Source: an uncultured Bacteroidota bacterium (lineage in GTDB: Bacteria > Bacteroidota > Bacteroidia > Flavobacteriales > Flavobacteriaceae). Taken from it: a stretch of 64,000 nucleotides of DNA. Below, piece after piece: positions 29,035 through 53,568 of the stretch. The DNA lies in assembly GCA_902598305.1 (NCBI GenBank), contig CACKBL010000009.1, positions 23,279-87,278 of the forward strand, read 5' to 3'. A program made the position numbers and the translations under genes. The notes under the pieces are model-generated. The model searched no databases. It was not told the origin of the DNA and was given only the letters and a program-made list of their open reading frames with translations. Position 1 is the stretch's first letter. Each line of letters begins with the position of its first letter.

Positions 29035-29580
29035 ATGAAAAAAACACTAATCATTTTAATTCTCGTAAATTGGCAAATTATTAAAGAACAAAAAATAATG
29101 GACAATAGCATATATCAATTTACTGTTGAAGATGTTGACGGAGAAGCATTCGATTTTTCGTGTCTAGAAGGAAAAAAAATCATGATTGTTAATACTGCTT
29201 CAAGATGTGGTCTCACATATCAATACAAGGGACTACAAGCCTTATATGATAAATATAAAAATCAAAACTTTATTATTATTGGTTTTCCTGCAAATAATTT
29301 TTTATTTCAAGAACCTGGTACAAACCAACAGATAAGCGAATTTTGTAAAAAAAATTACGGTGTTACATTTCCAATTATGTCCAAGATTGATGTAAAAGGG
29401 AAAAATATTCATCCGATATACCGTTTTTTAACTGATAAAAGTAAAAATGGATATATCGATTCAAAAGTAACTTGGAACTTCCAAAAATATTTAATTAATG
29501 AAAATGGATTACTGGAAATGGTTGTTTCTCCTAGGACATCCCCGGAGAGTGAAAAAATTGTAAATTGGATTACAAATTAG
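29035..29580 (+). CDS. Glutathione peroxidase (Cys type)
   Basis: NTASRCGLT (active-site Cys encoded by TGT, not TGA), GFPANNF and WNFQKYLI. An alternative start at 29098 (MDNSIYQF) is plausible. Confidence 0.85.
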   Translation: MKKTLIILILVNWQIIKEQKIMDNSIYQFTVEDVDGEAFDFSCLEGKKIMIVNTASRCGLTYQYKGLQALYDKYKNQNFIIIGFPANNFLFQEPGTNQQISEFCKKNYGVTFPIMSKIDVKGKNIHPIYRFLTDKSKNGYIDSKVTWNFQKYLINENGLLEMVVSPRTSPESEKIVNWITN

Positions 29581-29583
29581 TTG

Positions 29584-30732
29584 ATGAAAAAAAATAAACC
29601 TGAAACGCTATGTGTTCACGAAGGACAAATTGAAGATCCAATTTATAACGGTGCGGTTTCTCCTTTGTATATGGCTACAGCCTATTCATACAAAAAAGGT
29701 GATATGTACCCTCGATATTTTAATACCCCAAATCAGGTAGGGCTATCTAAAAAAATATCATCTCTAGAAAATGCTGAAGAAACTCTTGTTTTTGGTTCTG
29801 GGATGGCCGCAATTTCGACATCTTTACTTTCATTTTTGTCATCTGGTGATCACGTTATTTTTCAGCCTGATTTATATGGTGGAACTAGAAATTTTGCAAT
29901 TGAACATTTAAATACCTATGGAATAGAATATAGTTTCGCTGATAGCACTAATTTGAACGATTTTTCTTCTAAAATTAAAGATAACACAAAAGTTATCTAC
30001 GTGGAATCACCTAGTAATCCTTTGATGAAAATTATAGATTTAAAAGGTATATCTGAGCTCGCAAATGATCACAAGATTATTACAATGATTGACAACACGT
30101 TTGCTTCTCCTGTAAATCAAAATCCAATAACATTAGGTATAGATATTGTTATCCAAAGCGCAACAAAATATCTTGGAGGACATAGTGATATTTTAGCAGG
30201 TTCAGTATCATCTTCAAAAAAAAACATTGAATCTGTTTTTACTGTTGGAAAAAGCCTTGGTGGTAATTTAAGTGATTATACTGTTTGGTTGCTAGAAAGA
30301 AGTCTAAAAACATTATTCGTGAGGGTGGAAAAACAAAACAAAAATGCTAAAGAATTAGCTTACCACTTACAAAACCACGAATGTGTAAACAAAGTTTTTT
30401 ATCCTGGTCTAGAAAATAGCTTATATTATAATCTTGCAAAAAGCCAAATGAAAGATTTCACTGGTATGCTTTCATTCGAAATTGGCAAAAACATAAGCAG
30501 AGAAATTTTTGAAAACAATCTGAATCTAATTCAACCCGCAATAAGCTTGGCAGGAGTTGAAAGTACAATTAATATTCCATTTTTAACTTCACATAAATGG
30601 CTTCCTAAAGAGGAAAAAATAAAACAAGGGATAACACCAAATCTTGTCAGATTTTCTGTTGGCATTGAAGATGTTAATGATTTGAAGCGAGACCTTGACC
30701 AAGCTCTTAAAAAAGCAATTGATGAAAGTTGA
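29584..30732 (+). CDS. Cys/Met-metabolism PLP enzyme (cystathionine gamma-synthase/beta-lyase family)
   Basis: PLP-Lys block QSATKYLGGHSD, DNTFASP and ESLGGVES-like AGVEST. Family assignment only; substrate not resolved. Confidence 0.85.
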   Translation: MKKNKPETLCVHEGQIEDPIYNGAVSPLYMATAYSYKKGDMYPRYFNTPNQVGLSKKISSLENAEETLVFGSGMAAISTSLLSFLSSGDHVIFQPDLYGGTRNFAIEHLNTYGIEYSFADSTNLNDFSSKIKDNTKVIYVESPSNPLMKIIDLKGISELANDHKIITMIDNTFASPVNQNPITLGIDIVIQSATKYLGGHSDILAGSVSSSKKNIESVFTVGKSLGGNLSDYTVWLLERSLKTLFVRVEKQNKNAKELAYHLQNHECVNKVFYPGLENSLYYNLAKSQMKDFTGMLSFEIGKNISREIFENNLNLIQPAISLAGVESTINIPFLTSHKWLPKEEKIKQGITPNLVRFSVGIEDVNDLKRDLDQALKKAIDES

Positions 30733-31441
30733 TATAATTGCATTTGGAGCTCATCCTGATGATGTTGAGTTGGGCTGTGGCGGAAGTATTTCTTCAGCTA
30801 TTTCTCAAGGTTTAAAAGTTGGTATTGTTGACTTAACAAAAGGGGAACTTGGTACTAGGGGAACTAAAGAAATAAGAAAAAAAGAATCTGAAAAAGCCTC
30901 TGAAATTCTTGGGGTTAGTTTTAGAAAAAATTTAGGATTCAAGGATGCCTTTTTTGTTAACGATAAAGCCCATCAATTAAAAGTTATTGAATTATTAAGA
31001 GAACACAAACCTTCCATTGTATTTTGCAACGCAGTAAAAGATAGGCATATTGATCATCCCAAGGGTAGTAGACTTGTTAGTGATTCATGTTTTCTTTCAG
31101 GACTTTCTAAAATTAAAACGAATTACAAAAATTCTATAAATCAATCGCCTTGGACTCCAAAACAAGTTTACCACTACATCCAGTGGTTTGATATAAAACC
31201 CGATTTACTAATCGATATAAGTGACTTTCAAGAAAAGAAAATGGAAGCTATAATGGCTTATAATTCACAATTTTATAATCCAAACAGCAAAGAACCGAAT
31301 ACACCTATTAGTTCAAAAAATTTTATAGATAGTATTAAACAAAGAGATCAGAACTTCGGAAGAATTTCAGGAGTGGTTGCGGCAGAAGGTTTTACTGTTG
31401 AAAGGCCACCAGTTATACAAGTCTTCAAAGGCATTATATAA
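30722..31441 (+). CDS. LmbE/PIG-L-family zinc deacetylase (BshB1-like)
   Basis: AFGAHPDDVELGCGG and DRHIDH motifs. The ATG at 30722 overlaps the upstream stop by 11 nt. Confidence 0.8.
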   Translation: MKVDIIAFGAHPDDVELGCGGSISSAISQGLKVGIVDLTKGELGTRGTKEIRKKESEKASEILGVSFRKNLGFKDAFFVNDKAHQLKVIELLREHKPSIVFCNAVKDRHIDHPKGSRLVSDSCFLSGLSKIKTNYKNSINQSPWTPKQVYHYIQWFDIKPDLLIDISDFQEKKMEAIMAYNSQFYNPNSKEPNTPISSKNFIDSIKQRDQNFGRISGVVAAEGFTVERPPVIQVFKGII

Positions 31442-32473: not shown

Positions 32474-32540
32474 CTTCCAGAGAGTAGATATTCTCCAAGT
32501 GACAGATATTCTTTTTTTGTACATTTATTTAACCGATACA

Positions 32541-33638
32541 ATGAAAAAACTATTACTTCTTTTAGTATCTATATCACTTATTTCTTTTGGACAGGAAAAT
32601 TCTCAAGAATCAAGTGAAATAATTTTTCACGGAAAAGATTTTTTTAGGCTTGAAGGAACGATAATTGTTGACTCTTTAAAAGAGAACAGATACGATCGCC
32701 TACCTGCCTCCTATAAAGATGTTGTAAGAGAACAAGTATGGGAGTTGTCAAAATCATCCACTGGATTATCAATTCGTTTTATTACTAACTCATCAATAAT
32801 AAAAGTAAAGTGGGAGATTTTGAATAACTTAAAAATGGACCATATGCCTGAAACAGGAATTAAAGGGGTGGATCTATATTTCAGAAATAAAGACAAATGG
32901 CAATATCTAAATACAGGACGCCCCAAAGGAAAATTAAATGAGTATACTCTTGTCGAGAATATGACTTTAGAAGAAAGAGAATATAAAGTCTATCTACCTC
33001 TGTATGATGGAGTAAAGAATATCGAAATTGGAATTGACTCAAGTAGTTTCATAATAGTTCCTGACCGAAATTTAGAAAAACCAATAATATTTTATGGGAC
33101 AAGTATTACTCAAGGGGGTTGTGCATCTCGTCCAGGAATGGCTCACACTAATATTATCAACCGTAAATTGGACAGGGATATAATTAATTTTGGATTCAGC
33201 GGAAATGGCATAATGGAAGAGCCTATAGCAAAACTAATTTCAGAATTTGATGCAAAAATTTATGTAATTGAATGTATGCCAAATATGTTATCTCCACAAA
33301 ATATAACGGAACGCACAATTCCTCTAATTGATACCATAAGAGAGAAAAACCCTAATACTCCAATAATTCTTGTAGACTTATTTAAAGCTACCTTTTCTGT
33401 TTTAAATAATAAAGTTTTTGAATGGGGCAAAGGAATGGATAATGCTTTAAAAATAGAATATCAAAAAATGATTGATAATGGATACAATAACCTTTTCTAT
33501 TTTGAGACTTTAAATGCGTTAGGTGATGATCAAGAGGGAACAGTAGACGGAGTCCATTTTACTGATGTTGGCTTCATAAGATATGCAGATTTTTTAATAG
33601 AAAATTTCAAAGAATTAGGTTTAATAAAACAAGATTGA
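32541..33638 (+). CDS. SGNH/GDSL-family hydrolase (esterase) with an N-terminal beta-sandwich domain, secreted
   Basis: Signal peptide MKKLLLLLVSISLISFGQ. SGNH blocks FYGTSITQGG (Ser), GFSGNG and DGVHFTD (Asp-x-x-His). Confidence 0.8.
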   Translation: MKKLLLLLVSISLISFGQENSQESSEIIFHGKDFFRLEGTIIVDSLKENRYDRLPASYKDVVREQVWELSKSSTGLSIRFITNSSIIKVKWEILNNLKMDHMPETGIKGVDLYFRNKDKWQYLNTGRPKGKLNEYTLVENMTLEEREYKVYLPLYDGVKNIEIGIDSSSFIIVPDRNLEKPIIFYGTSITQGGCASRPGMAHTNIINRKLDRDIINFGFSGNGIMEEPIAKLISEFDAKIYVIECMPNMLSPQNITERTIPLIDTIREKNPNTPIILVDLFKATFSVLNNKVFEWGKGMDNALKIEYQKMIDNGYNNLFYFETLNALGDDQEGTVDGVHFTDVGFIRYADFLIENFKELGLIKQD

Positions 33639-33749
33639 TAAGTTGCAGAAATTAGGATTCTTCACTCTCCTCAAACTCTATATTCCACTCTACAGTATCC
33701 TTTATTCCAAAGAGGGGATATTCTTCATGTTACAAGTTTAATTATTTTT

Positions 33750-33757
33750 TATCTTTG
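33750..33757 (+). promoter_or_regulatory. Candidate -7 promoter box (TAnnTTTG) upstream of the Cys-rich sORF
   Basis: TATCTTTG ends 16 nt before the ATG at 33774. Support is positional only. Confidence 0.35.
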
Positions 33758-33773
33758 AATAAAATAAAATTCT

Positions 33774-33860
33774 ATGTGTAATTGTAGTTGTACCCCTTGT
33801 AAAGAAATAGATTGCTTAGCATGTGTTTGCGATCCTTGTGATTGTTCTTGTGATTGTTGA
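33774..33860 (+). CDS. Candidate 28-aa cysteine-rich peptide (11 Cys; metallothionein-like composition)
   Basis: Hand translation: MCNCSCTPCKEIDCLACVCDPCDCSCDC*. An in-frame TAA lies 9 nt upstream, and the sORF ends 21 nt before the next gene. It is not in the ORF track because it is shorter than 60 aa. Confidence 0.5.
   Translation: MCNCSCTPCKEIDCLACVCDPCDCSCDC
33835..33858 (+). repeat. Perfect 12-nt tandem duplication (CTTGTGATTGTT x2) inside the Cys-rich sORF
   Basis: Read directly: 33835-33846 equals 33847-33858. It encodes the repeated CDC units at the C-terminus. Confidence 0.9.
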
Positions 33861-33881
33861 TTAATTTTTTTAACTAGATGC

Positions 33882-35342
33882 ATGAAAAAATATTTTTTTA
33901 TAATTCTTTCTACCCTTTTGTTATGTTGTAATAATCCAAGCGTTGATTCCGAGAAAAGTAAAGTAGAAAATTTAGATTCTAAAAATTATTCAGATGTCTA
34001 CAAAATGGTTGAAATTTGGTTACAATCAGAGATAGATTACAATAATATCCCAGGCTTTTCGGTTGCTATAATAAATAAAGATAAAATTGATTGGAGTAGG
34101 GCAATTGGAAACGAAAAAAATAAGGATGAAATTTCCATAAATTCTTTATTTAGTATCTGCTCAATATCAAAATTATTTACTTCAATTGGAATTATGCAAT
34201 TAGTAAATGAAGGAAAGATTAATTTAGACGATCCTTTAAAAAAACATCTCCCTTTTTTTGATTTGGTTCAAATATATCCGGAAAGTTCTCCAATAACAAT
34301 TAGGAATATTTTAACCCACTCCTCAGGATTACCAAGAGAGTCAAATCAACCATATTGGTCAAACACTGATTTAATTTTCCCAACGAAAAAAGAGGTTATA
34401 GAAGGACTTTCTAAACAAAAAACCTTATATCCAGCGAACAAATATTTTCAGTACAGTAATTTGGGTCTAACACTTTTAGGATATCTAATTGAGGAGGTAT
34501 CTGGAATTCCATACAATCAATATATTTCAGACAAAATCTTAAATCCTTTAGATATGAATAGTACAAAAACCTTTATGGATAGAAAACAGTACGGCAAAGA
34601 ACTAATAGTTGGATTTGGAGCTGAAAATAGAAAAAGAAATAGGGAAAGTGTTCCTTATTTTAATGCTTTTGGAATTGATCCAGCGGCTGGATTTACATCA
34701 AACACTGTTGATCTAGCAAAATTTGCGATATGGCAGTTAAATTTGTTATCTGGTAAAAATAATTCGGGAGTTCTGCCTAAAGATCTCCTTTCGCAAATGC
34801 ACAAAATTCAATTTATAGATAGTTTAAGTAACGTTAAAAGAGGCCTTGGTTTTAGTATTTATAATCAAAATAACGAAAATCTAGTCGGTCACGGAGGCTC
34901 TTGTCCAGGATATAAAACACAATTAACTATTGATCCTAAAGGTCAAAAGGCAATCATAGTTTTAATTAATGCAAGGGGGGTTACCCCCACAAAATATACA
35001 AGAGGAATTAAAAACCTAATGAATCAACTACGAAAAGGGGATAATAAAAAAGCAAATGTGTTTAGAGAAATTAGTGGCTACTACAAATCTTTACCTTGGA
35101 ATACAGAAAATTATCTTTCTTCTTGGGGAGAAAATATTGCATTAATGTCACTCCCAAGTAATTCTGCAAACATCACAAGGTTCAAACCTGTAGAAAAGGA
35201 TGTGTTTAGAAGAATACTCAAAAACGATAGTCTAGGTGAGTATTTATATATCATAAGAGATGAAAAAAATAATATTTCTGGATTTAAAAGACATCAAAAT
35301 ATTTATAATTTTTATGGCAAAGAAGCCTCTGATTTGAATTAG
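33882..35342 (+). CDS. Beta-lactamase-family serine hydrolase (class C/PBP4*-like), lipoprotein or secreted
   Basis: S-x-x-K block FSICSISKLFT, YSN block FQYSNLG and an HGG block VGHGGSCPGY. Signal with LLCC. Confidence 0.85.
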   Translation: MKKYFFIILSTLLLCCNNPSVDSEKSKVENLDSKNYSDVYKMVEIWLQSEIDYNNIPGFSVAIINKDKIDWSRAIGNEKNKDEISINSLFSICSISKLFTSIGIMQLVNEGKINLDDPLKKHLPFFDLVQIYPESSPITIRNILTHSSGLPRESNQPYWSNTDLIFPTKKEVIEGLSKQKTLYPANKYFQYSNLGLTLLGYLIEEVSGIPYNQYISDKILNPLDMNSTKTFMDRKQYGKELIVGFGAENRKRNRESVPYFNAFGIDPAAGFTSNTVDLAKFAIWQLNLLSGKNNSGVLPKDLLSQMHKIQFIDSLSNVKRGLGFSIYNQNNENLVGHGGSCPGYKTQLTIDPKGQKAIIVLINARGVTPTKYTRGIKNLMNQLRKGDNKKANVFREISGYYKSLPWNTENYLSSWGENIALMSLPSNSANITRFKPVEKDVFRRILKNDSLGEYLYIIRDEKNNISGFKRHQNIYNFYGKEASDLN

Positions 35343-38470: not shown

Positions 38471-41449
38471 ATGAAAAAAAATGTAATGAAGAGTATTCTC
38501 TCTGTACTAGCCTTTTTGGTTTCAGTGGGAATTTATGCTCAGTCTGTTTCTGGACTTGTTACTAGTGAGGATGGTCCCCTACCAGGGGCAACTGTTCTTG
38601 TAAAAGGAACGAGTGAAGGAACTACGACTGATTTTGACGGAAATTTTACAATAAATGCTGGAGCAGATGATGTTCTTGTGGTATCATTTGTAGGATTTGT
38701 TTCACAAGAAGTTTCTGTTGCAGGACAAGATAACATAACAATTAATCTTGTTTCTGACAGTGAACTTGATGAAGTTATTGTAACTGGTTATGGTTCTCAA
38801 AATGAGAGAGAAATTACCTCAGCTACAGTAAATGTAAATGCTGAAGATTTTAACCAAGGGCCTATCAATGATCCAATTCAGTTACTTCAAGGTAAGGTCG
38901 CTGGTTTGACTATTTATAAACCAGGGGGTAATCCAAACGAATCACCTACTATTAGAATTAGAGGTCTTTCAACACTTGGTGCCAATACTTCCCCACTTGT
39001 TGTAATAGACGGAATTCCAGGTGCAACACTTGCCAGTATTGATCCTAATGATATTGAGTCTATGACCGTTCTGAAGGATGGTTCAGGTGCTGCTATCTAT
39101 GGTACAAGGGGATCCAGTGGTGTGATACTTATCACTTCTAAGAAAGGTAAATCTGGACCTATGCAGGTTAATTACAACACAAGTTTTGCACAAAGTTCAA
39201 TTGCTCAAAGAATTCCAGTGTTATCTGCGCAAGAATTTCTTGACAACGGTGGTACTCAACTTGGAACTCAAACTGATTGGGTAGATGCAATTACTAGAAA
39301 TGGAAGTAATGTTATCCACAACTTTTCAGTTGCTGGTGGTGGAGAGAAAAGTACATATAGAATGTCTGCCAATTTGAGAAAATCTGAAGGAATATTAAAT
39401 AGAACTGGATTTGATCAAATGAATACAAGAGCAGCACTTAGTACAAAAGCTCTTAATGACAAGTTAGATATTACTTTTAATATGGCTTACACGAAATTTG
39501 ATCGTGATTTAGGAGATGAAAGAGCTTTTGAATTTGCTCAATTTTATAATCCTACTGCACCAATCTACGCTGCAGATCCACTTGCTAAATATAAAGTTGA
39601 TCCAGTACAATTTGGTGGATATTTTGAACAGTTAGGTCTTTTTAGAAGTTATAATCCAGTTGCGATTATTGAGCAAACAAGAAATACAAGAGTTTCGACA
39701 GATTTTATTTATAATGTTGCAGCTACATACAATGTAACTGATAAGTTTGAAGTTACAGCAGTTGTATCTGAGCAAAGAACATCTTCTAATGATCAGCTCT
39801 ACAGACCAACTACGTTGTGGTTTGAAGGAAATGCAACTAGTCCGACTCGAAAAGGACTAGCTGACCACGCTAGTTTTAACTTTTCTTCTAAAGTTTTTGA
39901 ATACTATGGAAGATATAATATGGATTTAGGCTCTTCTAATTTGAATGTGACTGCTGGTTATTCTTACAACCAGTTTAACTCAAGAGGAACTCAGTTTTCT
40001 CTAGGTGATTTCCCAGATAATTCAATTGACTGGTCTAATGCAATTGGTGCATCTCAAGATTTATTAAATTCAGGTTTTATTGGTGCAAACAGTTACGCAT
40101 CTCCTGATGATAAAATCATCGGTATGTTTGCTCGGGCTAACCTTGTTATTAACAACAAGTATTTTGTTAATGCATCACTTAGAAGAGAAGGTTCGTCTAG
40201 ATTTGGTGCTGATCAAAGATGGGGGGTTTTCCCAAGTTTTGGTATTGGTGCTGATTTAAATGAGATTCTTGGCTTAGGATTAAGAAAGTTTAAAGTAAGA
40301 GCTAGTACTGCTACAACTGGAGCATTACCAGCAACTACTGGTTTAACAGCTCAAGCTAGAACATTCGTTTATGATGGAGGAGGTTCTGCTGGTGGTTCGA
40401 CTGTACTTAGTAGAGCTGCAAACGCTGATTTAAAGTGGGAAGAGAAAAATGAGTTTAATTTCGGAATAGAATATGAAACTGGAAAATTAGCTATAGACTT
40501 CGACGTTTACAACAGAGTAATAAAAGACTTTATTCTTGACAGACAAGTTGATGTTACCGTATTTGGTGTTGACAGAAGATTTGAGAATTCTGGACAGGTT
40601 ACATCTAAGGGTTGGGAATTAAAAGCTGAGTATGATGTAATCGATAATGACAAATTAAGTTATAATACTGGTTTGGCTTTTTGGAACAACAAAGTTATTC
40701 TAGATGAATACGTTCTTGACAGAGCTCAGTATGGATTCTTAGGTTCTCCAGGACAAAATGCTGTTACGATGGTAAAAGTTCAAGTTGGAGAAGAATTAGG
40801 TCAAATTTTTGCACCTGTGTTTGTAGGTGTAAATGCTGACGGTTCCCCACAATTTAAGGACGTCAACGGTGACGGTACACTAAATACCGATTCAGGAAAC
40901 GTACTTCAAGATAATTATGATGGTGAGGTTATTGGTAATGCATATCCGACTCTTGAAATGTCGTGGTCAAATAATGTGAATTTTGGAAATGGATGGTCTT
41001 TAAATGCCTTCTTCAGAGGAGCGTTTGGACACAGTCTAATTAATACATTTAGAGCCTTCTATGAGCCTAACGTCCCATCTCAGACATCTTACAACCAAAT
41101 GAACACATCTCTTAGAGAGCCAAACTTGGCAGTTGCCCAGTATAGTTCGTTATATGTAGAAAAAGCTGATTTTTTCTTACTTGACAACTTAACACTCTCT
41201 AAGCAAATAATAATGCCGGAGGGTAGCGGTATTAAAGATTTAACAGTATCTTTGAATGCGCTAAGACCTTTTGTGATAACCAATTACACAGGTACGGATC
41301 CTTCTCCTGAGCTTTTTGATGCTCTAGGTGGTGGTGAAGAAGGAAATGCTGCTTCTGGTGGAGCCGCACTACTTGCGCCTGGTATTGACAGAAGAGCGGA
41401 TTACTTCGCGAGTAAGACATTTTCTGTTGGATTAAGTGTTAACTTTTAA
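38471..41449 (+). CDS. SusC/RagA-family TonB-dependent outer-membrane transporter
   Basis: Signal peptide; CarboxypepD_reg-like N-domain (VSGLVTSEDGPLPGATVLVKGTSEGTTTDFDGNF); TonB-box-like DEVIVTGYG; plug (IESMTVLKDGSGAAIYGTRGSSGVILITSKKG); long barrel ending ...VGLSVNF. Confidence 0.9.
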   Translation: MKKNVMKSILSVLAFLVSVGIYAQSVSGLVTSEDGPLPGATVLVKGTSEGTTTDFDGNFTINAGADDVLVVSFVGFVSQEVSVAGQDNITINLVSDSELDEVIVTGYGSQNEREITSATVNVNAEDFNQGPINDPIQLLQGKVAGLTIYKPGGNPNESPTIRIRGLSTLGANTSPLVVIDGIPGATLASIDPNDIESMTVLKDGSGAAIYGTRGSSGVILITSKKGKSGPMQVNYNTSFAQSSIAQRIPVLSAQEFLDNGGTQLGTQTDWVDAITRNGSNVIHNFSVAGGGEKSTYRMSANLRKSEGILNRTGFDQMNTRAALSTKALNDKLDITFNMAYTKFDRDLGDERAFEFAQFYNPTAPIYAADPLAKYKVDPVQFGGYFEQLGLFRSYNPVAIIEQTRNTRVSTDFIYNVAATYNVTDKFEVTAVVSEQRTSSNDQLYRPTTLWFEGNATSPTRKGLADHASFNFSSKVFEYYGRYNMDLGSSNLNVTAGYSYNQFNSRGTQFSLGDFPDNSIDWSNAIGASQDLLNSGFIGANSYASPDDKIIGMFARANLVINNKYFVNASLRREGSSRFGADQRWGVFPSFGIGADLNEILGLGLRKFKVRASTATTGALPATTGLTAQARTFVYDGGGSAGGSTVLSRAANADLKWEEKNEFNFGIEYETGKLAIDFDVYNRVIKDFILDRQVDVTVFGVDRRFENSGQVTSKGWELKAEYDVIDNDKLSYNTGLAFWNNKVILDEYVLDRAQYGFLGSPGQNAVTMVKVQVGEELGQIFAPVFVGVNADGSPQFKDVNGDGTLNTDSGNVLQDNYDGEVIGNAYPTLEMSWSNNVNFGNGWSLNAFFRGAFGHSLINTFRAFYEPNVPSQTSYNQMNTSLREPNLAVAQYSSLYVEKADFFLLDNLTLSKQIIMPEGSGIKDLTVSLNALRPFVITNYTGTDPSPELFDALGGGEEGNAASGGAALLAPGIDRRADYFASKTFSVGLSVNF

Positions 41450-43190: not shown

Positions 43191-46100
43191 TTGATTAGAA
43201 TATTTATAAAGCTGTTATACAGTTTGCCTTTTGTTTTTCTTTCATGTGATGATAAATATGGAGAAAGATTTATTCGGTTTGAAGAAGAATCAGGATTGAT
43301 TTTTGAAAATAATCTTGAATACACCGAAAATTTAAATCCTTACACTTACAGAAATTTTTATAATGGTGGAGGAGTTGCTTTAGGAGATATAAACAACGAT
43401 GGTTTAATAGATGTTTATTTTACAGGAAATATCGTTGATAATAAATTATTTTTAAATAAAGGAAATTTTAAATTCGAAGATATTACTCCTACAGCTGGAG
43501 TTGCTTGTTCTAATGTCTGGTCAACTGGTGCGACCTTCGCAGATATAAATGGGGATGGTTTTTTAGATATCTATGTATGTAAGTCTGGACCCCCAGGTGG
43601 TAAAAATAGAAACAACGAACTTTTTATTAACAACGGTGATTTAACTTTCACAGAAAAATCAAAAGAATACAATTTAAATCTAACAGGTTTATCAGTTCAC
43701 TCTGCTTTTTTTGACTATGATAAAGACGGTGATTTGGACTGTTATATTTTAAATAATTCATTTAGAAACGTTGGAGGTTACGACTTAGTTGAAGATCAGA
43801 GAAAAATTCCTGATCCAGATGGTCAGGGGAATAAATTTTTTGAAAATGTGGGAAACAAATTTATCGATGTAACACAAAAAGCAAATATTTTTTCAAGTAA
43901 TATTGGATTTGGTTTAGGTATAACCCTAAGTGATTATAACAATGACGGTTGGACTGATTTGTTTATTTCTAATGACTTTTTTGAGAAGGATTATTTGTAT
44001 ATAAATAATAAGGACAAAACCTTTTCTGAAAAATCCACCAAATATTTTAAATCTATGTCACTTGGTTCTATGGGAGCTGATTCAGCAGACTTAGATAATG
44101 ATTTACTTACTGATTTATTTGTGACAGAAATGCTTCCGAAATCTTTGAAAAGAAGAAAGACAAAAGCGGTTTACGATTCTTGGGACAAACATCAACTAGC
44201 TGTATCAAAAGGTTACTATTATCAGTATCCAAGAAATGTTCTTCAAAGAAATTACGGAAATTCTGGATTTTTTGAAATAGGAAGATATTCTAACCTAGCT
44301 GCAACTGAATGGAGTTGGGCATCAATGATTTTTGATATGAACAATGATGGTCTAAGAGATATTTTCATTGCAAACGGTATATTCAAAGATCTTCTAGACA
44401 GAGATTATCTCGCTTATATGGCTAATAAGCAAAGGATTTCGAATTTAATGAAGTCAGGTGGTGAAGTTATTAAAAAGCTAATCGATATTATGCCATCTAA
44501 GGCTGTTAAAAACAATGTATATAGAAACGATGGTGATTTTGATTTTACTGAATTTACCGATCAGTGGGGATTTGATTCTCCAAGTTTTAGCAACGGAATG
44601 GCTTATGGAGATCTTGACAACGATGGTGATCAAGATATAGTTATCAATAATGTAAATATGAAATCTTTTGTCTACAATAATCAAAATGACAATGAAAGTT
44701 CAAAAAGTATATCATTTAATCTTAAAGGGGTTGATAAAAACAGAAACGCTATAGGCGCAAAACTCATAATTTACTATGGAGAAGCGAAATCTAGCATGTC
44801 TGAACATTTTCCCTCAAGAGGTTTTCAATCTTCAATTTCAAATAAAATTCACTTCGGTGTAGGTGACATTGACAAGGTAGACAGCTTAATAGTTTACTGG
44901 CCAAATGAAGAAATTTCAAAATTATATGATTTAAAAACAAATAAAACTTACAATGTTGATCAACAAGTGGAAAAGAGGTTCACTAAATTGAACAGACCAA
45001 AAGATAAAAAGAAAAATAAATTAAATGAAATTGATATTTTAAACCACTCACACACAGAAAACAAATTTATTGATTTTAACAAAGAAAGACTTATTCCTCA
45101 AATGTTTAGCAACGAAGGCCCTCCAATTATCTCGAGTGATTTAAATGGTGATAATGTTCCAGATTTTTTTGTGGGATCTTCTAAAAACCAAATATCTTCA
45201 CTTTTTCTATCCGATGATTTATCTTATAAAGAAATAATAAAACCATTTAAAAATCACAAAAATTCAGAAGACATTGATGCTGTTTTCTTTGACAGTGACA
45301 ATGATGGTGACAAAGATCTTTATGTGTCCTCCGGAGGAAAATCTTTTTCTAGATACGATAGTAATCTAGATGACAGACTTTATATTAACGAGGGAAATGG
45401 AAATTTTAAAGTTTCTAACTCCTCTATTTCTTTTGATAAACCCTTTTCAACAGGTGCAGTTGCTATTGGGGATTATAACAATGACTCATTGTTAGATATT
45501 TTTGTGGGAGAGCGATATGATGTAGATAGTTATGGCATTCCAGTATCTGGAAGACTTTATAAAAATATCGGAGGTAATAAATATGAATTTGTAAAAATTA
45601 AATCCTTTGATGACTTAGGTCTTATTAAATCTGCTAGATGGATAGATTTAAACTCCGATAATAATTTAGACTTAATTGTTTCAGGTGAGTGGATGCCAAT
45701 TAAAATATTTATAAATATCAATGGAGACTTCATTGACAAAACTAAAGAATACGGTTTAGAAAAATCAAATGGATTGTGGAGTGATATAGAAGTATCCGAT
45801 ATTGATAATGACGGTGACGTTGACTTGGTTGCGGCAAATTTTGGTCAAAATAATTTCTATAAACCCAATATGAAAATGTTTGTTAATGATTTTGATTTAA
45901 ATGGATTTAAAGAGCAAATAATATGCTACGAAATAGATGGGAAAAATTATCCAATTTTAGATAAAGACGAGTTAGTAGCACAGCTGCCTGGAATAAAGAA
46001 AAAAATTGTCTACTACGAAGATTACGCTAATCTAAGCGTAGACCAGATTTTTGGCCAAGAAACTATTGAAAATTCAGTAGTGTTAAATTTAAATATTTTA

Positions 46101-46454
46101 CAGTCTTCAGTTTTTGTAAACAATAATGGAAAATTTGAACAAACTTCTATGCCTCCAGAAGTTAATTATTCATCCATGTATGATATTGAAATAGTTGAGA
46201 AATACAAAAGAGGTATAAAAATCGTCATGGGAGGTAATCAGTACAATATCAAACCTCAATTTGGAAGACAGGACGCTTCAAAAGGATATTTTTTAAATAT
46301 AGAAATTTCAAATGATTCAATATCTTATTCAAATTTAGAATCACTAAATATTGACGGTCAAATACGTAATTTTGAAATCTTTAATTTAAAAAACGCGAAA
46401 GCAATAGCAGTAGGAATTAACAATGAAAAAACTAAATTTTTTAAATTTGAATAG
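43191..46454 (+). CDS. FG-GAP/VCBS-repeat + ASPIC/UnbV (CRTAC1-like) giant lipoprotein, paralog 1
   Basis: Lipobox FVFLSC followed by DD. Many Ca-binding-type D-x-D-x-DG blade motifs (GDINNDGLID, ADINGDGFLD, FDYDKDGDLD, GDLDNDGDQD, SDIDNDGDVD). ASPIC/UnbV-like block NRNAIGAKLIIYYG...SRGFQSS. Apparent TTG start. Confidence 0.85.
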   Translation: MIRIFIKLLYSLPFVFLSCDDKYGERFIRFEEESGLIFENNLEYTENLNPYTYRNFYNGGGVALGDINNDGLIDVYFTGNIVDNKLFLNKGNFKFEDITPTAGVACSNVWSTGATFADINGDGFLDIYVCKSGPPGGKNRNNELFINNGDLTFTEKSKEYNLNLTGLSVHSAFFDYDKDGDLDCYILNNSFRNVGGYDLVEDQRKIPDPDGQGNKFFENVGNKFIDVTQKANIFSSNIGFGLGITLSDYNNDGWTDLFISNDFFEKDYLYINNKDKTFSEKSTKYFKSMSLGSMGADSADLDNDLLTDLFVTEMLPKSLKRRKTKAVYDSWDKHQLAVSKGYYYQYPRNVLQRNYGNSGFFEIGRYSNLAATEWSWASMIFDMNNDGLRDIFIANGIFKDLLDRDYLAYMANKQRISNLMKSGGEVIKKLIDIMPSKAVKNNVYRNDGDFDFTEFTDQWGFDSPSFSNGMAYGDLDNDGDQDIVINNVNMKSFVYNNQNDNESSKSISFNLKGVDKNRNAIGAKLIIYYGEAKSSMSEHFPSRGFQSSISNKIHFGVGDIDKVDSLIVYWPNEEISKLYDLKTNKTYNVDQQVEKRFTKLNRPKDKKKNKLNEIDILNHSHTENKFIDFNKERLIPQMFSNEGPPIISSDLNGDNVPDFFVGSSKNQISSLFLSDDLSYKEIIKPFKNHKNSEDIDAVFFDSDNDGDKDLYVSSGGKSFSRYDSNLDDRLYINEGNGNFKVSNSSISFDKPFSTGAVAIGDYNNDSLLDIFVGERYDVDSYGIPVSGRLYKNIGGNKYEFVKIKSFDDLGLIKSARWIDLNSDNNLDLIVSGEWMPIKIFININGDFIDKTKEYGLEKSNGLWSDIEVSDIDNDGDVDLVAANFGQNNFYKPNMKMFVNDFDLNGFKEQIICYEIDGKNYPILDKDELVAQLPGIKKKIVYYEDYANLSVDQIFGQETIENSVVLNLNILQSSVFVNNNGKFEQTSMPPEVNYSSMYDIEIVEKYKRGIKIVMGGNQYNIKPQFGRQDASKGYFLNIEISNDSISYSNLESLNIDGQIRNFEIFNLKNAKAIAVGINNEKTKFFKFE

Positions 46455-47016
46455 AATATTTTTTATAATAATAAATTTGATTTTAATTGTTGGTTGTCAA
46501 AAAAAATCCGAGTATTCAACAATATTAACAAGGGAATTAGAAAAGAAAAATGAGTTTAACGACTTGATTTTTGACATGAAAATTGGACAATCAAGGCAAG
46601 ACTATTTTGATATTTGTTATCAACTTAACAAACAAAAAAAGATAATTTCAGGTGAAAGAAGTTTAAATCCAGAGTTAATTCTCAAATCGAAAAACGGTTC
46701 AACAAAAGGGAGTAATATTAAAATGTCATTTAATGGAATTTTTAATGAAAAAAAAACAATGAGAGGTTTTGAAATGAGATTTTATTTTACTGGATGGTCA
46801 AATTGGAATAAAGATTTATCCTCTGAAAATCTTCTATTTCAGTTGAAAGATACACTAAGGAAATGGTTTCCGGGGAATGATTTTTTTAAAGTTAACTTTG
46901 AAAATAATCTTTCTGCTGAAGTAAAAATTGATGGTAACAGGAGAATTTTAGCCTACAAAGTTAACTCCAAGGACGTAGCAGTAAGAATTGAAGATATGAG
47001 TGGTAAATATGATTAA
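46423..47016 (+). CDS. Hypothetical small lipoprotein embedded in the paralog array
   Basis: Lipoprotein signal IIINLILIVGC. 197 aa. Overlaps the upstream gene by 32 nt and the downstream ATG (47009) by 8 nt. Confidence 0.6.
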   Translation: MKKLNFLNLNRIFFIIINLILIVGCQKKSEYSTILTRELEKKNEFNDLIFDMKIGQSRQDYFDICYQLNKQKKIISGERSLNPELILKSKNGSTKGSNIKMSFNGIFNEKKTMRGFEMRFYFTGWSNWNKDLSSENLLFQLKDTLRKWFPGNDFFKVNFENNLSAEVKIDGNRRILAYKVNSKDVAVRIEDMSGKYD

Positions 47017-50000
47017 TTTACGTTTTATTTTTCTGGTTCTTTTTTTGTTTTTGATATCATGTCAAAACAACGATAATCTTTTCGAATTAAAAGATAATAG
47101 GAAGCTGGGAATAAGTTTTTCAAATAATTTAGGTTTTGACAATGATTTTAATGTCTACAAGTATAGAAACTTTTACAATGGTGGAGGGGTAGCGTTAGGA
47201 GATATTAATAATGATGGTTTAATCGATCTTTATTTGACATCAAATCAAAATAAAAACAAACTCTATCTAAATAAGGGAAATTTTACTTTTGAGGACATCA
47301 CAGATTCAGCTAACGTTGGGGGTACTAAGGCTTGGTCAACTGGAGTTACCATGGTGGACATCAATTCTGATGGTCTTTTGGATATTTATGTGTGTAATTC
47401 TGGTGATATAAAAGGAGATAACAAGCAAAATGAACTTTTTGTAAACAATGGAGATTTAACTTTTATTGAATCTGCATCAAATTATAATCTTGATGACAAA
47501 GGATATTCCACACATGCAAGTTTTTTCGATTACGATAAAGATGGAGACTTAGACGTTTATATTTTAAATAATTCTTATCAAGCCATAGGTTCATTTAACC
47601 TAACTAAAAATGAAAGGCCGAAAAGAGACTTACTTGGTGGAGATAAATTAATGGAAAACGTTGATGGGGTTTTTAAAGATGTTAGTGAAAAGTCAAATAT
47701 TTTTGGAAGCGTAATTGGTTTTGGTTTAGGAGTTACAGTTGGGGATACAAATGGAGATGGTTGGGAGGATATTTTTGTGAGTAATGATTTCTTTGAGAGG
47801 GACTATCTCTATATTAATAATAAGGATGGAACTTTCACCGAAGATCTAACTAACCAAATGAAGTCTATAAGTGGTGCGTCCATGGGTGCCGACCTTGCAG
47901 ACATTGATAATGACGGTTTCAATGATATTTTTGTAACGGAGATGCTTCCTTCAAAATATGAAAGACTAAAATCGGTTACCACTTTCGAAGATTGGAATAA
48001 ATACCAATATGTTGTAAAAAATGGATATTATCACCAATTCACAAGGAATGTTTTGCATTTAAACAACGGAAACCAAACATTTAGTGAAATAGGAAGGTTC
48101 GCTGGAGTCGAGGCCTCGGATTGGAGTTGGGGAGCATTATTTTTTGATATGGAAAATGACGGATATAAAGATTTATTTATTGCAAATGGAATCTTTAAAG
48201 ACCTCACTGACCAAGACTATTTGCAATACATATCTAACGATGAAGTTGTAAAGTCAATTGTAATGAATAATGAAGTTGATTACAAAAGGTTAATTGAAAT
48301 AATCCCATCAGAAAAAGTACCGAATCATGCCTATAAAAATCTCAACGGTATTAATTTCAGTTCTTATACAAATTCAGGTTTAGATTTACCAAGTTTTTCT
48401 AATGGATCAGCCTATGGTGATTTAGATAACGATGGCGATTTAGATTTAATTGTAAATAATGTAAACATGCCTCTTTTTGTTTTTGAAAATAAAAACAAAA
48501 GCAAAAATAATTATATAAAACTTGAACTAAAGGGACTCTATAATAACGTAAATGCAATAGGCACCAAAATTATTGTAAAAACCAAAAATGGCATACAAAT
48601 TCAAGAGGTACAGCCCGCAAGAGGCTTTCAATCAACAGTAGATATAAGACCAAATTTTGGATTAGGTGATGCCACAAATGTAGATATAGAAGTTATTTGG
48701 CCTTATGGTAAGAAAACTTTTTTAAAAAATACCAAAGTGAATCAAACTATTTCACTTAATGAAAAAGATGCAATCGAATTTTCAGAAGAATTAACAAATA
48801 ATAAAGCAACTAAACCCCTATTTCAAAAAAATAAAATAAAACCCAATATCGTTCATAAGGAAAGTAATTTCGTAGATTTTAACAGAGAAAGACTTATTTA
48901 CCATATGTGTAGTAGCGAAGGTCCAAAAATAACCAAAGGAGACATCAATGGGGATAATGAAGAAGATATCTTAATTTCCTCTTCAAAAGGGAACACCACT
49001 CAAATATTAATAAAAGATGGGTCTGATTATTATATAGATAAAAAAAACAAAAAATTATTCGATGATTTGAGGGATGTTGAAAATTCGGAAATCATACCTT
49101 TTGATGCAGATAATGATGGAGATTTAGATTTATACTATTCAAGTGGTAGTGTAGAGCACTCAAGATATTCTCAGACATTATATGATAGACTATTATTAAA
49201 TAATGGTAAGGGTGAGTTTATAGATTCAAATCAAAGTTTACCAGATATAAATAGTAAGATTAGTACCGGTGCTGTCATATCTGGTGATATTGATAACGAT
49301 GGAGATTTAGATTTATTTGTTGGTGAAAGGGTGAAAATAGGAAGTTATGGCTCACCTGGATCTGGTTTTATTTTGGTGAATGATGGGAATGGAAATTTTA
49401 CAAATCAAACCAAAAAAATAGCTCCAAACCTAATAAATATAGGAATGATTACTGATGCTTCATTTGAAGATATTGACACAGATGGCAACTTAGATCTTAT
49501 TGTGGTGGGAGAATACATGGGAATCAATATTTTTAAAAATGAAGGGTCACGATTCAATCCAATTCAAAATAAAATTTTAGATGAGAAAGGATGGTGGAAT
49601 GAAATTCATATTTCTGACTTAAATAATGACGGTAAAATTGATTTGATTGTTGGCAACCACGGCTTAAATTCAAGATTTAATGCTAGCAAGTCTAGACCAT
49701 TAAAGCTATATTTTAATGACTTTGATAAAAATGGTTTTGGAGAAGGAATTATTTGTTTTGAGGCCGAAAACGGAAAAGATTACCCTTACGCATTACGTCA
49801 TGATTTGATAGATCAAATTAAAAGTTTAAAGAAAAAATTTCCCGATTACGAATCTTTTAAAAACGCAGACATATCTAAAATTTTTGATGAAAAAATCCTC
49901 AATGAGTCGGATATACTTATTACAAACACATTAGAAACTTCTATATACATAAACAAAGAGGGGTTTGAATTTGAGAAAATTAATATTCCAAGCGAAGTAC

Positions 50001-50278
50001 AATTTAGTCCTGTTTACTCAATTAATAGTCATGATTTCGATGGTGATGGAGACGAAGATATTCTACTAGGCGGAAATTTATATGACGTAAAACCAGAAGT
50101 TGGTATTTATGATGCTTCTTATGGACTATACTTAGAAAATTTAGGTAATCTAAAATTCAAGTATCATAAAGATGGAAACGGTTTTTTTGTAAAAGGAGAA
50201 ATTAGAGATCTTTTAATCTCTGATAAAAATATTTTTGTTTCTAAAAATAACGACAAAATGGAAGTATTTAAATTTTAA
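47009..50278 (+). CDS. FG-GAP/VCBS-repeat + ASPIC/UnbV giant lipoprotein, paralog 2
   Basis: Lipobox FLFLISC. Same blade motifs as paralog 1 (GDINNDGLID, VDINSDGLLD, FDYDKDGDLD, GDLDNDGDLD). ASPIC block NVNAIGTKIIVKT...ARGFQST. The frame is also open from a GTG at 47000. Confidence 0.85.
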   Translation: MINLRFIFLVLFLFLISCQNNDNLFELKDNRKLGISFSNNLGFDNDFNVYKYRNFYNGGGVALGDINNDGLIDLYLTSNQNKNKLYLNKGNFTFEDITDSANVGGTKAWSTGVTMVDINSDGLLDIYVCNSGDIKGDNKQNELFVNNGDLTFIESASNYNLDDKGYSTHASFFDYDKDGDLDVYILNNSYQAIGSFNLTKNERPKRDLLGGDKLMENVDGVFKDVSEKSNIFGSVIGFGLGVTVGDTNGDGWEDIFVSNDFFERDYLYINNKDGTFTEDLTNQMKSISGASMGADLADIDNDGFNDIFVTEMLPSKYERLKSVTTFEDWNKYQYVVKNGYYHQFTRNVLHLNNGNQTFSEIGRFAGVEASDWSWGALFFDMENDGYKDLFIANGIFKDLTDQDYLQYISNDEVVKSIVMNNEVDYKRLIEIIPSEKVPNHAYKNLNGINFSSYTNSGLDLPSFSNGSAYGDLDNDGDLDLIVNNVNMPLFVFENKNKSKNNYIKLELKGLYNNVNAIGTKIIVKTKNGIQIQEVQPARGFQSTVDIRPNFGLGDATNVDIEVIWPYGKKTFLKNTKVNQTISLNEKDAIEFSEELTNNKATKPLFQKNKIKPNIVHKESNFVDFNRERLIYHMCSSEGPKITKGDINGDNEEDILISSSKGNTTQILIKDGSDYYIDKKNKKLFDDLRDVENSEIIPFDADNDGDLDLYYSSGSVEHSRYSQTLYDRLLLNNGKGEFIDSNQSLPDINSKISTGAVISGDIDNDGDLDLFVGERVKIGSYGSPGSGFILVNDGNGNFTNQTKKIAPNLINIGMITDASFEDIDTDGNLDLIVVGEYMGINIFKNEGSRFNPIQNKILDEKGWWNEIHISDLNNDGKIDLIVGNHGLNSRFNASKSRPLKLYFNDFDKNGFGEGIICFEAENGKDYPYALRHDLIDQIKSLKKKFPDYESFKNADISKIFDEKILNESDILITNTLETSIYINKEGFEFEKINIPSEVQFSPVYSINSHDFDGDGDEDILLGGNLYDVKPEVGIYDASYGLYLENLGNLKFKYHKDGNGFFVKGEIRDLLISDKNIFVSKNNDKMEVFKF

Positions 50279-53200: not shown

Positions 53201-53568
53201 TTTATGATCTCGAATCTTCTATTTTTATAAATGAAGAAGATGGTTTTAAAAAATATGCTTTGCCACCTAATGCACAACTTAGTAGTATTGAAGATTTTAA
53301 AATTTTTAAGAAATCAAGTAGTATAAATAACGTAATTTACGTAGGAAATTTCAGTAAATATGTTACGGAACTTGGATTCTCAAGTGCTAATCCTGGCGGT
53401 TTATTATTAGATTTTGATACCAAACAAATGAAATTTAAAAAATCAAAATCTCTTCCTTTACCAATTAATAAAGATTTTAAAGAGATAATACGATTTGATA
53501 AAAATTATTTGATATTTACAAATAATGATTTCATATTCTCTTTGAAAGCGGACTACTTAGAACAATAA
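50281..53568 (+). CDS. FG-GAP/VCBS-repeat + ASPIC/UnbV giant lipoprotein, paralog 3 (most diverged)
   Basis: Lipobox-like LILFCC. Blade motifs GDINNDGLED, EDVNNDGFLD, LDYDKDGDLD and ADLDLDGDLD. ASPIC-like block TRGSRIVLYL...TRGFQSS. Starts 2 nt after the paralog 2 stop. Confidence 0.85.
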   Translation: MIVNKIKLSLLFFASTLILFCCNKLEKKAESSIKFKTLNSSYTGIDFNNKLKYKTKLNIIEYLYYYNGGGVAIGDINNDGLEDIYFSGNQVSDRLYLNLGNLKFKDITLASGINTDKSWSNGVSFEDVNNDGFLDIYVCKVSPISPKGTHNLLYINNKNMTFTESSSLLGLDFSGFSTHSTFLDYDKDGDLDMYLMNHAVHTVRSYGSSKKRKESDELSGDKFFENRLNEKDKKFVDVTKESNIYDSPLGYGLAITTTDFNNDGWLDIYIGNDFHENDYLYLNNKDKTFTESIKNSMSHTSHFTMGVDVADLNQDGSLDVFTTDMMPYDPKIFLKSGGEDLDKISRIKKDLGFEQQFSRNHMQISRGNNTFSEVAIQTNTHATDWSWGVLLQDFDSDGRDDIFISNGILKRPNDLDYINYLSNVDFTEYNNSRQDVIKKKLIDKMPTLKIPNLFFKNNGNLNFEKVNPSFTGIPSYSNGAAYADLDLDGDLDIVLNNLNSEASVLENLTEKSNFLSVKLVGNEKYPVTRGSRIVLYLNNTKLVKEDIITRGFQSSSSHNIFFGLGKNKNIDSLIIRWPDGVKETKMVTKINQRVNIYKSNYRFKNKEEVEIKKSKDFEINYLPIKHKEIEYYDYEKERLIPEKLSFEGPAAVKADFNNDGLEDFFIGGAKFQRGKIFLSNKNNGYEEVKNMDLQKDNIFEDTDAAAFDIDKDGDLDLYVVSGGNEYKELDKNYMDRVYLNDGLGNFTRLQIPLPKTNGSSVSVSDFNNDGYEDLFVGSRSITGFYGLSPYSFIMLNNRDNTLSPMEQQRYGMVTDSKWVDFNSDGKKDLILVGDWMPITILIQEDDLKFVNKTDEYGLSKTNGLWNVVEINDFNKDGRMDIIAGNAGTNFKWKPSIKKPVKLYLDDFDNNLQPDPIIFYEFFGKYVPFSSKDKLDKQLPFLKKKFPNYNNFSSINNIKSLTGKDENEILEIKYIYDLESSIFINEEDGFKKYALPPNAQLSSIEDFKIFKKSSSINNVIYVGNFSKYVTELGFSSANPGGLLLDFDTKQMKFKKSKSLPLPINKDFKEIIRFDKNYLIFTNNDFIFSLKADYLEQ

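Follow-up and report, generated by a model that had tools for sequence, protein, structure and literature searches.

Introduction

The locus described here raises the question of whether an unannotated 28-codon open reading frame (ORF) encoding 11 cysteines is a gene and, if so, what kind of peptide it encodes. The ORF lies at positions 33774-33860 of the forward strand in a 64,000-nucleotide stretch of contig CACKBL010000009.1 from an uncultured member of the Flavobacteriaceae; this whole stretch is referred to as the window. An initial annotation had taken the ORF to be real and its product to be metallothionein-like, with a precursor of a ribosomally synthesized and post-translationally modified peptide (RiPP) or a regulatory upstream ORF (uORF) as alternatives. 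Bacterial metallothioneins are considered rare, with SmtA/BmtA and MymT as the cited representatives (PMC7558416). A literature search found no metallothionein from Bacteroidota.

This article describes the ORF as a member of a family of 11-Cys micro-genes, most of which are coupled to an extracytoplasmic function (ECF) sigma factor. The best-supported reading, and a probable one on the analysis of sequence and context, is that the window peptide is a cytosolic metallothionein-like peptide that would hold metal in a Cys-thiolate cluster. The evidence for the family, for its coupling to the sigma factor and for the metal context is presented below, and the competing explanations are then weighed together.

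A cysteine-rich ORF in the window

The ORF and the features next to it are as follows:

33750-33757, forward strand: TATCTTTG box of the Bacteroidota -7 type (TAnnTTTG), likely promoter for the micro-ORF and the hydrolase (sequence reading; predicted activity)
33774-33860, forward strand: 28-codon gene for the 11-Cys peptide MCNCSCTPCKEIDCLACVCDPCDCSCDC*, one of the orphan copies in the family (translation, ortholog in locus L001, family of ~95 members, ratio of nonsynonymous to synonymous polymorphism)
33835-33858, forward strand: perfect 12-nt tandem repeat, CTTGTGATTGTT twice, inside the ORF and coding for ..CDC/SCDC (sequence reading)
33861-33881, forward strand: 21-nt spacer between the micro-ORF and the hydrolase, with no terminator (sequence reading, terminator scans)
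33882-35342, forward strand: serine hydrolase of the beta-lactamase family (Pfam PF00144, E = 3e-55)

The micro-ORF is contained in a 243-nt gap between an SGNH/GDSL hydrolase gene (32499-33638) and the serine hydrolase gene that begins at 33882, and an in-frame TAA (33765-33767) is located 9 nt 5' of its ATG. Its translation has 11 Cys in 28 residues (39% Cys) and contains no Phe, Trp, Tyr or His. All these elements of the initial description, together with the 21-nt spacer, were confirmed. The six frames of the window contain 723 ORFs with a length of 20 aa or more; the micro-ORF has the highest Cys content of them all, the second reaching 15%, and the six-frame Cys frequency of the window is 2.3%. 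Segments of 28 codons with 11 Cys occur twice among ~128,000, both overlapping the micro-ORF, and its Cys density is far beyond chance. An antisense 44-aa ORF (33749-33883, reverse strand; MHLVKKINQQSQEQSQ...) was rejected as a mirror-image by-product; all antisense frames contain stops in some relatives.

An 11-cysteine family maintained by selection

Related peptides were sought in genome and metagenome collections with the spacing of Cys 1-8 as the pattern, Pro8 being also required in the metagenome set, and the matches were filtered; (TGC)n junk was removed from the first genome scan and one locus (L359) was dropped as a false positive. The resulting family covers 95 loci, whose peptides (94 distinct sequences) are 28-37 aa long, with the consensus spacing C-x-C-x-C-xx-C-xxxx-C-xx-C-x-C-xx-C-x-C-x(1-2)-C-x-C-stop and MKNxxCTCNCxGCKxGNCxNCTCxNCTCxNCNC as a typical member; the 33-mer MENKNCTCNCKGCKTGNCNNCTCENCTCSSCNC of Polaribacter marinus is an example from a locus linked to the sigma factor. 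Cys accounts for 34% of the residues, and Phe, Tyr, Trp, His and Leu for at most 0.4% each (His 0.4%, Tyr 0.3%, Phe 0.2%, Trp none). Two traits that were outside the search pattern are also widely shared, namely Cys 9-11, kept in 91 of the 95 loci, and a stop codon placed immediately after the last Cys, found in 83. The full spacing (1,1,2,4,2,1,2,1,2,1) is present in 87 loci, and the count of 11 Cys is constant from the 28-aa to the 37-aa members. The segment preceding the first Cys varies, with one residue in the window peptide (Cys as residue 2) and 3-9 elsewhere (Cys as residue 4-10).

Members occur in Polaribacter, Tenacibaculum, Winogradskyella, Kordia, Gelidibacter, Olleya, Bizionia, Jejuia and Seonamhaeicola, and further ones were found in a Flavobacterium species, in metagenome-assembled genomes (MAGs) of Saprospiraceae and Cytophagales, in marine and freshwater metagenomes and on some IMG/VR contigs. 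The window peptide belongs to a marine subtype (MC) carried on low-GC contigs, which includes 28-aa forms (window, L001, L301, L311) and 29-aa forms (L264, L267, L279, L300, L326); the former are one codon shorter, CxCxxCxC being reduced to CxCxCxC.

Every Cys site uses both TGT and TGC across the family. Within the MC subtype the ratio of nonsynonymous to synonymous polymorphism (pN/pS) is 0.30, and pairwise comparison of the Cys codons gives 114 synonymous changes and no nonsynonymous ones, in a context where the flanks are unalignable. Three close relatives (L001, L002 and L003) were retrieved with the neighbouring hydrolase as bait and not through their Cys. Of these, L001, whose hydrolase is 86% identical, has an ortholog (MCECNCTPCKEIDCSACVCKPCGCSCDC) at the same position with all 11 Cys kept. 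The two ORFs differ at 11 nt (4 synonymous, 7 nonsynonymous) and the Cys codons are undamaged; as a rough estimate that assumes random placement, the chance that such changes spare every Cys codon is ~0.65^11, that is ~0.009. The window ORF is, on these sequence comparisons, almost certainly a real and selected coding gene. The claim that it is real gains support from the frame and the 11 Cys being kept both in the independently found L001 ortholog and across the large family, and the Cys-pattern searches and codon check that the initial annotation had proposed gave a favourable outcome.

The 12-nt repeat had been read as a CDC unit added by slippage. The repeat is perfect in the window, as stated, and its two halves agree at only 10 of 12 positions in L001 and L311. 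Because the 11 Cys are constant throughout the family, the repeat adds no unit; the window subtype is in fact one codon shorter, the 29-aa relatives having an extra codon at the repeat site. Judged from these alignments, the repeat is a by-product of periodic CxC coding and the slippage proposal finds no support.

Coupling to a SigZ-like sigma factor

The neighbours of all 95 loci were clustered to find recurrent partners. The dominant one is an ECF sigma factor of 167-195 aa, encoded on the same strand 0-207 nt downstream of the peptide gene in 55 loci, with two outliers at ~700 nt. It contains Sigma70_r2 and r4_2 domains, SigZ is the NCBIfam model that matches it best (175 bits, short of the equivalog cut-off of 212), and it bears a Cys-rich extension of ~25 aa, with an invariant C-terminal CC...CxxC and one invariant linker Cys (D-C-L). 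No anti-sigma gene was found in the neighbourhoods. By the NCBIfam match and the Cys-rich tail, the linked sigma fits group ECF238 (SigZ, CorE2). Members of this group have a short Cys-rich extension thought to mediate activation by metal and no anti-sigma factor (PMC7826278, PMC8999054, PMC4937300, PMC6851896); CorE2 responds to Cd/Zn (PMC7826278, PMC8999054, PMC4937300), and studies on SigZ of B. subtilis are described as very limited (PMC7826278). CorE-like sigma factors are defined by a CxC in the sigma2-sigma4 linker (PMC8999054). This motif, which defines the former ECF44, is absent from the linked sigma, where a single linker Cys is found.

The sequence TGCATC-N16-cGTCTA (TGCATCTTTTT...cGTCTatTa.aTGAAc) precedes the peptide ATG in 55 of 55 sigma-linked loci and in 7 further loci, 6 of which end no more than ~210 nt past the peptide; it was found in none of the 33 other loci, referred to as orphans. 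Exactly 17 nt separate TGCATC from GTC in 62 of 62 cases, and the end of the motif is usually 27-29 nt before the ATG. Read as sequence, the motif has the architecture of an ECF promoter, and it is inferred that the adjacent sigma uses it. The linkage was also recovered in the opposite direction, since a scan starting from the sigma gene detected the peptide and the promoter upstream of 18 of 18 flavobacterial orthologs. In a Flavobacteriaceae MAG (L402) the promoter motif is intact, most Cys codons are gone from the peptide frame (2270-2500; KNKECTCNCVNYIRGQCENFTSENCNYTGYNC) and the sigma gene (2501-3023) is interrupted by numerous stops; the pair appears to have degenerated in parallel.

A hairpin is usually located between the peptide and sigma genes. 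Under a strict rule requiring a hairpin plus a T-run, it is terminator-like in 31 of 59 sigma-linked loci, compared with 3 of 32 orphan loci and 7 of 91 shuffles. In three planctomycete MAG loci the homologous Cys-tailed sigma is preceded, 20-28 nt upstream, by a different Cys-rich ORF of 64-65 aa:

L393:2279-2473, L396:2287-2481 and L404:2279-2476: planctomycete Cys-rich ORFs (for example, MPTESSETGNTPSCCVPAGCCVPSSCCVPAGC...)

These ORFs have CC-x-P repeats, a good Shine-Dalgarno sequence and the same promoter motif, TGC(A/G)TCCTTTT...CCGTC, and they retrieved no homolog from the protein database.

DUF3703 and the metal context

A gene for a DUF3703 protein (Pfam E = 7.5e-37) ends ~60 nt before the peptide ATG in 8 loci of Polaribacter/Tenacibaculum type:

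L113, L156, L174, L176, L225, L235, L244 and L344: DUF3703 gene directly upstream of the peptide gene

In 6 of these 8 loci DUF3703 is preceded by its own copy of the ECF-type promoter. On plasmids from three phyla, DUF3703 genes are found in Cd/Zn/Pb loci: the Pseudoalteromonas copy adjoins genes for CzcA and a CDF transporter, the Pseudomonas putida copy comes directly after cadR, and the Rhodococcus copy is part of a cluster with CadD, ArsR/SmtB, a P-type ATPase and lspA. No account of DUF3703 was found in a literature search. This second promoter target points to metals as the likely signal, as far as gene context can be used for this purpose. The other recurrent neighbours of the family are mutase, Lrp and MFS genes.

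Comparison with known proteins

The family is all but absent from the protein resources that were searched. An exact look-up of 10 member peptides in a collection of 15 billion sequences returned none. A profile built from 96 aligned sequences, the first being a natural 43-aa version that starts at an upstream ATG, had a single match among 5.77 billion proteins, a 65-aa over-call of one member. Neither the window peptide nor any of the 96 members matched Pfam or NCBIfam at E <= 10, no PDB chain was found at the same threshold, and a PHROGs search of the family peptides gave no match.

Among known systems, the vertebrate metallothionein alpha-domain is comparable in having ~30 residues and 11 Cys in CxC/CxxC arrangements, in being almost free of aromatic residues and His, and in lacking a predicted signal peptide. 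In that domain 11 Cys ligate four divalent ions in an M4Cys11 cluster. Its CC doublets are missing here, however, and the 11-Cys peptide is a free-standing single domain with no detectable homology to it: an hhalign comparison with human MT2 gave an 8-column motif match with a probability of 4.3%. The fungal Cu-metallothioneins (yeast Cup1 and the 26-aa Neurospora metallothionein) are of similar length. In Cup1, HECQCQCGSCKNN aligns with xxCTCNCxGCKxG of the family over 13 columns with an hhalign probability of 7.7%, but the remaining Cys spacing differs and the resemblance is most likely convergent.

The bacterial precedents share general traits with the family. MymT of Mycobacterium tuberculosis is a Cys-rich product of ~5 kDa whose small ORF had escaped genome annotation, and it is up-regulated for Cu resistance (PMC7558416); its phylum, sequence and regulator are all different and no model matched. 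SmtA/BmtA (Pfam Metallothio_Pro) are small cytosolic proteins that sequester Zn/Cd under a metal-responsive regulator (PMC7558416), a role that the 11-Cys peptide would share. SmtA, in contrast, has a zinc-finger fold, His ligands and ~56 aa, and none of the 96 members matched the Pfam model. Regarding the regulator, CorE/CorE2 and SigZ (ECF238) resemble the linked sigma in the Cys-rich C-terminal extension of ~25 aa and the lack of an anti-sigma gene (PMC7826278). The literature presents CorE-like factors as 'loner' proteins that have a CxC linker and lack a Cys-rich partner gene (PMC6851896, PMC8999054), whereas the linked sigma has just one Cys in the linker, and a Cys-rich micro-gene dedicated to it lies upstream. 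Precursors of the SCIFF/ranthipeptide RiPPs are likewise short, Cys-rich and ribosomally made, but the leader and the adjacent radical-SAM maturase that accompany them are absent here.

The window copy and its closest relatives

The window was found to contain no SigZ homolog, no DUF3703 and, near the ORF, no TGCATC-type ECF promoter. As the initial annotation had noted, a TAnnTTTG box is present there: TATCTTTG ends 16 nt before the micro-ORF ATG and is identical in L001 and L301, and the 45 nt upstream of the ORF that include it are almost identical in L001. TAnnTTT(G/A) recurs within 60 nt upstream of the ATG in 21 of 33 orphan loci, mostly 14-24 nt before the ATG in the related copies, versus 7 of 62 sigma-linked loci. 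No terminator-like site was detected in 33300-34200 by a sigma-70 promoter/terminator scan, in which nothing exceeded shuffles, nor in the spacer between micro-ORF and hydrolase by a second, separate hairpin scan, and an Rfam search of 33400-34100 returned only sub-threshold noise. The serine hydrolase is probably co-transcribed with the micro-ORF.

No micro-ORF is present at the hydrolase locus of L002 and L003. In L002 the conserved upstream block directly abuts the hydrolase ATG, so that in the window lineage the ORF and spacer (~108 nt) sit between the promoter region of the hydrolase and the hydrolase itself. Among the 28-aa forms, the downstream gene is the hydrolase in the window, L001 and L301, and a 62-aa membrane-protein ORF in L311; in other close relatives the downstream genes are unrelated or convergent (convergent in L279 and L326). 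A role tied specifically to the hydrolase is thus discounted for the peptide, and the hydrolase is no conserved partner of the 11-Cys family.

A separate conserved block at 33705-33735, ATTCC..AGAGGGGATATTCTTCA..ACA, contains a short hairpin (GGGGA-TAT-TCTTC in the window, GGAGA-TAT/TGT-TCTCC in L001 and L002). All three relatives carry this block 5' of the promoter region despite different upstream genes, and it may be an operator or RNA element of the hydrolase unit. The sole match in the window to TGCATC-N15-17-CGTC (40171-40197, forward strand) was rejected as a probable chance occurrence; it lies inside the 38471-41449 ORF, the T-tract is absent and 3 of 100 shuffles also produced a match.

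A probable metallothionein-like peptide and the competing explanations

The metallothionein-like reading is favoured because the size, composition and Cys spacing are typical and because relatives have the sigma-type promoter and the DUF3703 context. The peptides are below 10 kDa, rich in Cys arranged as CxC/CxxC, and have few or no aromatic residues and His, as is expected of metallothioneins. A tie of their expression to metal status would be an indirect one: 62 members have the promoter linked to the SigZ/CorE2-like sigma, and the DUF3703 co-target is found in Cd/Zn plasmid loci; the window copy has neither. This part of the initial annotation stands as the best fit, on circumstantial evidence. 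In the main branch of the family the compact unit would consist of the ECF-type promoter, a leader of ~20 nt, the ORF and the hairpin or terminator, upstream of the sigma gene; a metal-activated sigma would turn on the mass production of a chelating peptide, with some read-through past the hairpin into the sigma gene. In the window orphan, the ORF and its 21-nt spacer lie between a housekeeping-type promoter and the serine hydrolase gene, and the peptide is therefore probably made constitutively together with the hydrolase.

Several points weigh against this interpretation. Cys 1-8 were fixed by the search pattern, as was Pro8 for the metagenome set, which inflates the apparent conservation at those sites, and no similarity to any known metallothionein family was detectable with Pfam, NCBIfam, PDB or hhalign. 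The window copy has neither sigma gene nor ECF promoter nor DUF3703, so that its link to metals is borrowed from relatives. In addition, the linker of the flavobacterial sigma contains a single Cys instead of the CxC of CorE-like factors, its SigZ score falls short of the cut-offs, and the signal could be redox rather than metal; the OsmC genes near some sigma-linked loci also fit thiol stress.

A rival view is that the peptide belongs to a thiol/redox module, as a sacrificial thiol buffer or as a modulator of the sigma that exchanges redox state or metal with it (a mini anti-sigma or co-sensor), and is not a metal store. The linked sigma, with its invariant linker and C-terminal Cys but without the CxC of CorE (PMC8999054), is compatible with this view, as is the position of the peptide gene in the partner slot of the operon, where the planctomycete homologs have another Cys-rich ORF. 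OsmC-like genes are found upstream in 8 loci, and in the window a glutathione peroxidase, a Cys/Met pyridoxal phosphate (PLP) enzyme and a PIG-L (BshB-like) gene are located 2-5 kb upstream. The terminator-like hairpin, on the other hand, implies a large excess of peptide over sigma, which suits an effector and not a stoichiometric partner; 33 orphan copies, that of the window included, exist without the sigma; and the DUF3703 link points to Cd/Zn. Typical anti-sigma domains are, moreover, far larger than the 11-Cys peptide, and a redox or modulator role is considered unlikely. An attenuator-like device, in which the passage of ribosomes through the Cys-rich frame (responding, for instance, to Cys-tRNA supply) controls the hydrolase here and the sigma elsewhere, would account for the position of the ORF between promoter and hydrolase in the window, L001 and L301, 21-22 nt from the hydrolase ATG, and the order ORF, hairpin/terminator and gene in sigma-linked loci resembles an attenuator layout. 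It is nevertheless improbable: downstream genes vary among close relatives (a small membrane protein gene in L311, convergent genes in L279 and L326), the window has neither a terminator nor an alternative structure, and the ORF showed no complementarity to the left arm of the terminator in the 31 sigma-linked loci (mean z +0.44, with no value below -2). Codon sensing would not require the constraints seen on the peptide itself, namely a fixed Cys spacing, frequent Gly and a stop immediately behind the last Cys, and strong AGGAGG sites precede the copies found in other phyla. The hydrolase-specific uORF of the initial annotation is accordingly disfavoured.

Small size and Cys richness also agree with a thioether- or disulfide-rich RiPP precursor, and Bacteroidota encode many RiPP systems. 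Yet the peptides have no leader or follower, and no tail after the last Cys in the 83 loci mentioned above; no recurrent radical-SAM, lanthipeptide, YcaO or peptidase/transporter gene, that is, no conserved maturase, was found among the neighbours of the 95 loci, and no NCBIfam precursor model matches, which makes this alternative very improbable. That the ORF is a non-functional chance product of a TGT-rich low-complexity stretch is scarcely credible. The region does contain a short tandem repeat and the ORF, unannotated, is below the length limit of gene callers (a common minimum is the 90 nt of Prodigal); but the frame, length class, all Cys and stop position recur in different genera and phyla although the surrounding DNA cannot be aligned, relatives have a dedicated promoter and terminator, and Cys codons are lost only alongside a partner sigma gene that has itself become a pseudogene.

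The metallothionein-like reading can be extended to a broader picture whose chances appear evenly balanced: a widespread, unrecognised family of bacterial metallothioneins, the first in Bacteroidota, would serve as the main target, bounded by a terminator, of an ECF238 sigma that senses metal, with analogous micro-genes in Planctomycetes, with orphans that spread to streamlined marine flavobacteria, and with copies on IMG/VR viral-classed contigs as well. By function the peptide would be a metallothionein, a known kind of protein; what is new, as far as the literature search indicates, is the combination of no detectable homology to the metallothionein families tested, a phylum without a reported metallothionein and an undescribed coupling to an ECF sigma. 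If this is correct, the supposedly 'loner' CorE/SigZ-type sigma factors gain a dedicated effector or partner, which challenges the view that they act alone, and the coupling provides a concrete regulon for ECF238, a group of largely unknown function. Abundant ocean bacteria would have a hidden metal-buffering component, and an unaccounted intracellular Zn/Cd/Cu buffer would be implied for trace-metal biogeochemistry; the carriers include abundant marine Flavobacteriaceae such as Polaribacter, Tenacibaculum (some species of which are fish pathogens), Winogradskyella and Kordia. The family is also a clear case of functional micro-genes overlooked by gene callers.

Further members and neighbouring genes

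Members on IMG/VR contigs are those of L576, L583, L594, L602, L605, L644/L699, L657, L703/L704 and L705, and metagenome loci with members include L271, L287 and L309. A first viral scan with the bare Cys pattern yielded only poly-Cys repeats. Many of the IMG/VR and freshwater members are Lys-rich (MCKCKCVPCVRGKCEKCRCKDCKCEGCSCKK), with strong AGGAGG sites and higher GC, and in L309, L605 and L703-L705 the motif may form the C-terminus of a longer ORF. Beside L602, a DNA methyltransferase is the only neighbour with a PHROGs match; the neighbours of the metagenome locus L309 are phage-like by eye only, one of them resembling ThyX.

A fused methylmalonyl/isobutyryl-CoA-mutase-like gene (~1146 aa, by eye) is found upstream on the same strand in 31 of the 95 loci, at 60-3600 nt (~100 nt upstream of the peptide in L160, for example), and probably reflects Flavobacteriaceae synteny rather than a functional link.

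In the window, the thiol-related genes 2-5 kb upstream of the micro-ORF, on the same strand, and four large ORFs further downstream are:

29035-29580, forward strand: glutathione peroxidase
29581-30732, forward strand: Cys/Met-metabolism PLP enzyme
30695-31441, forward strand: PIG-L family deacetylase, possibly BshB-like
43191-46454, 47000-50278, 50281-53568 and 53738-56992, forward strand: four ORFs of ~1084-1095 aa

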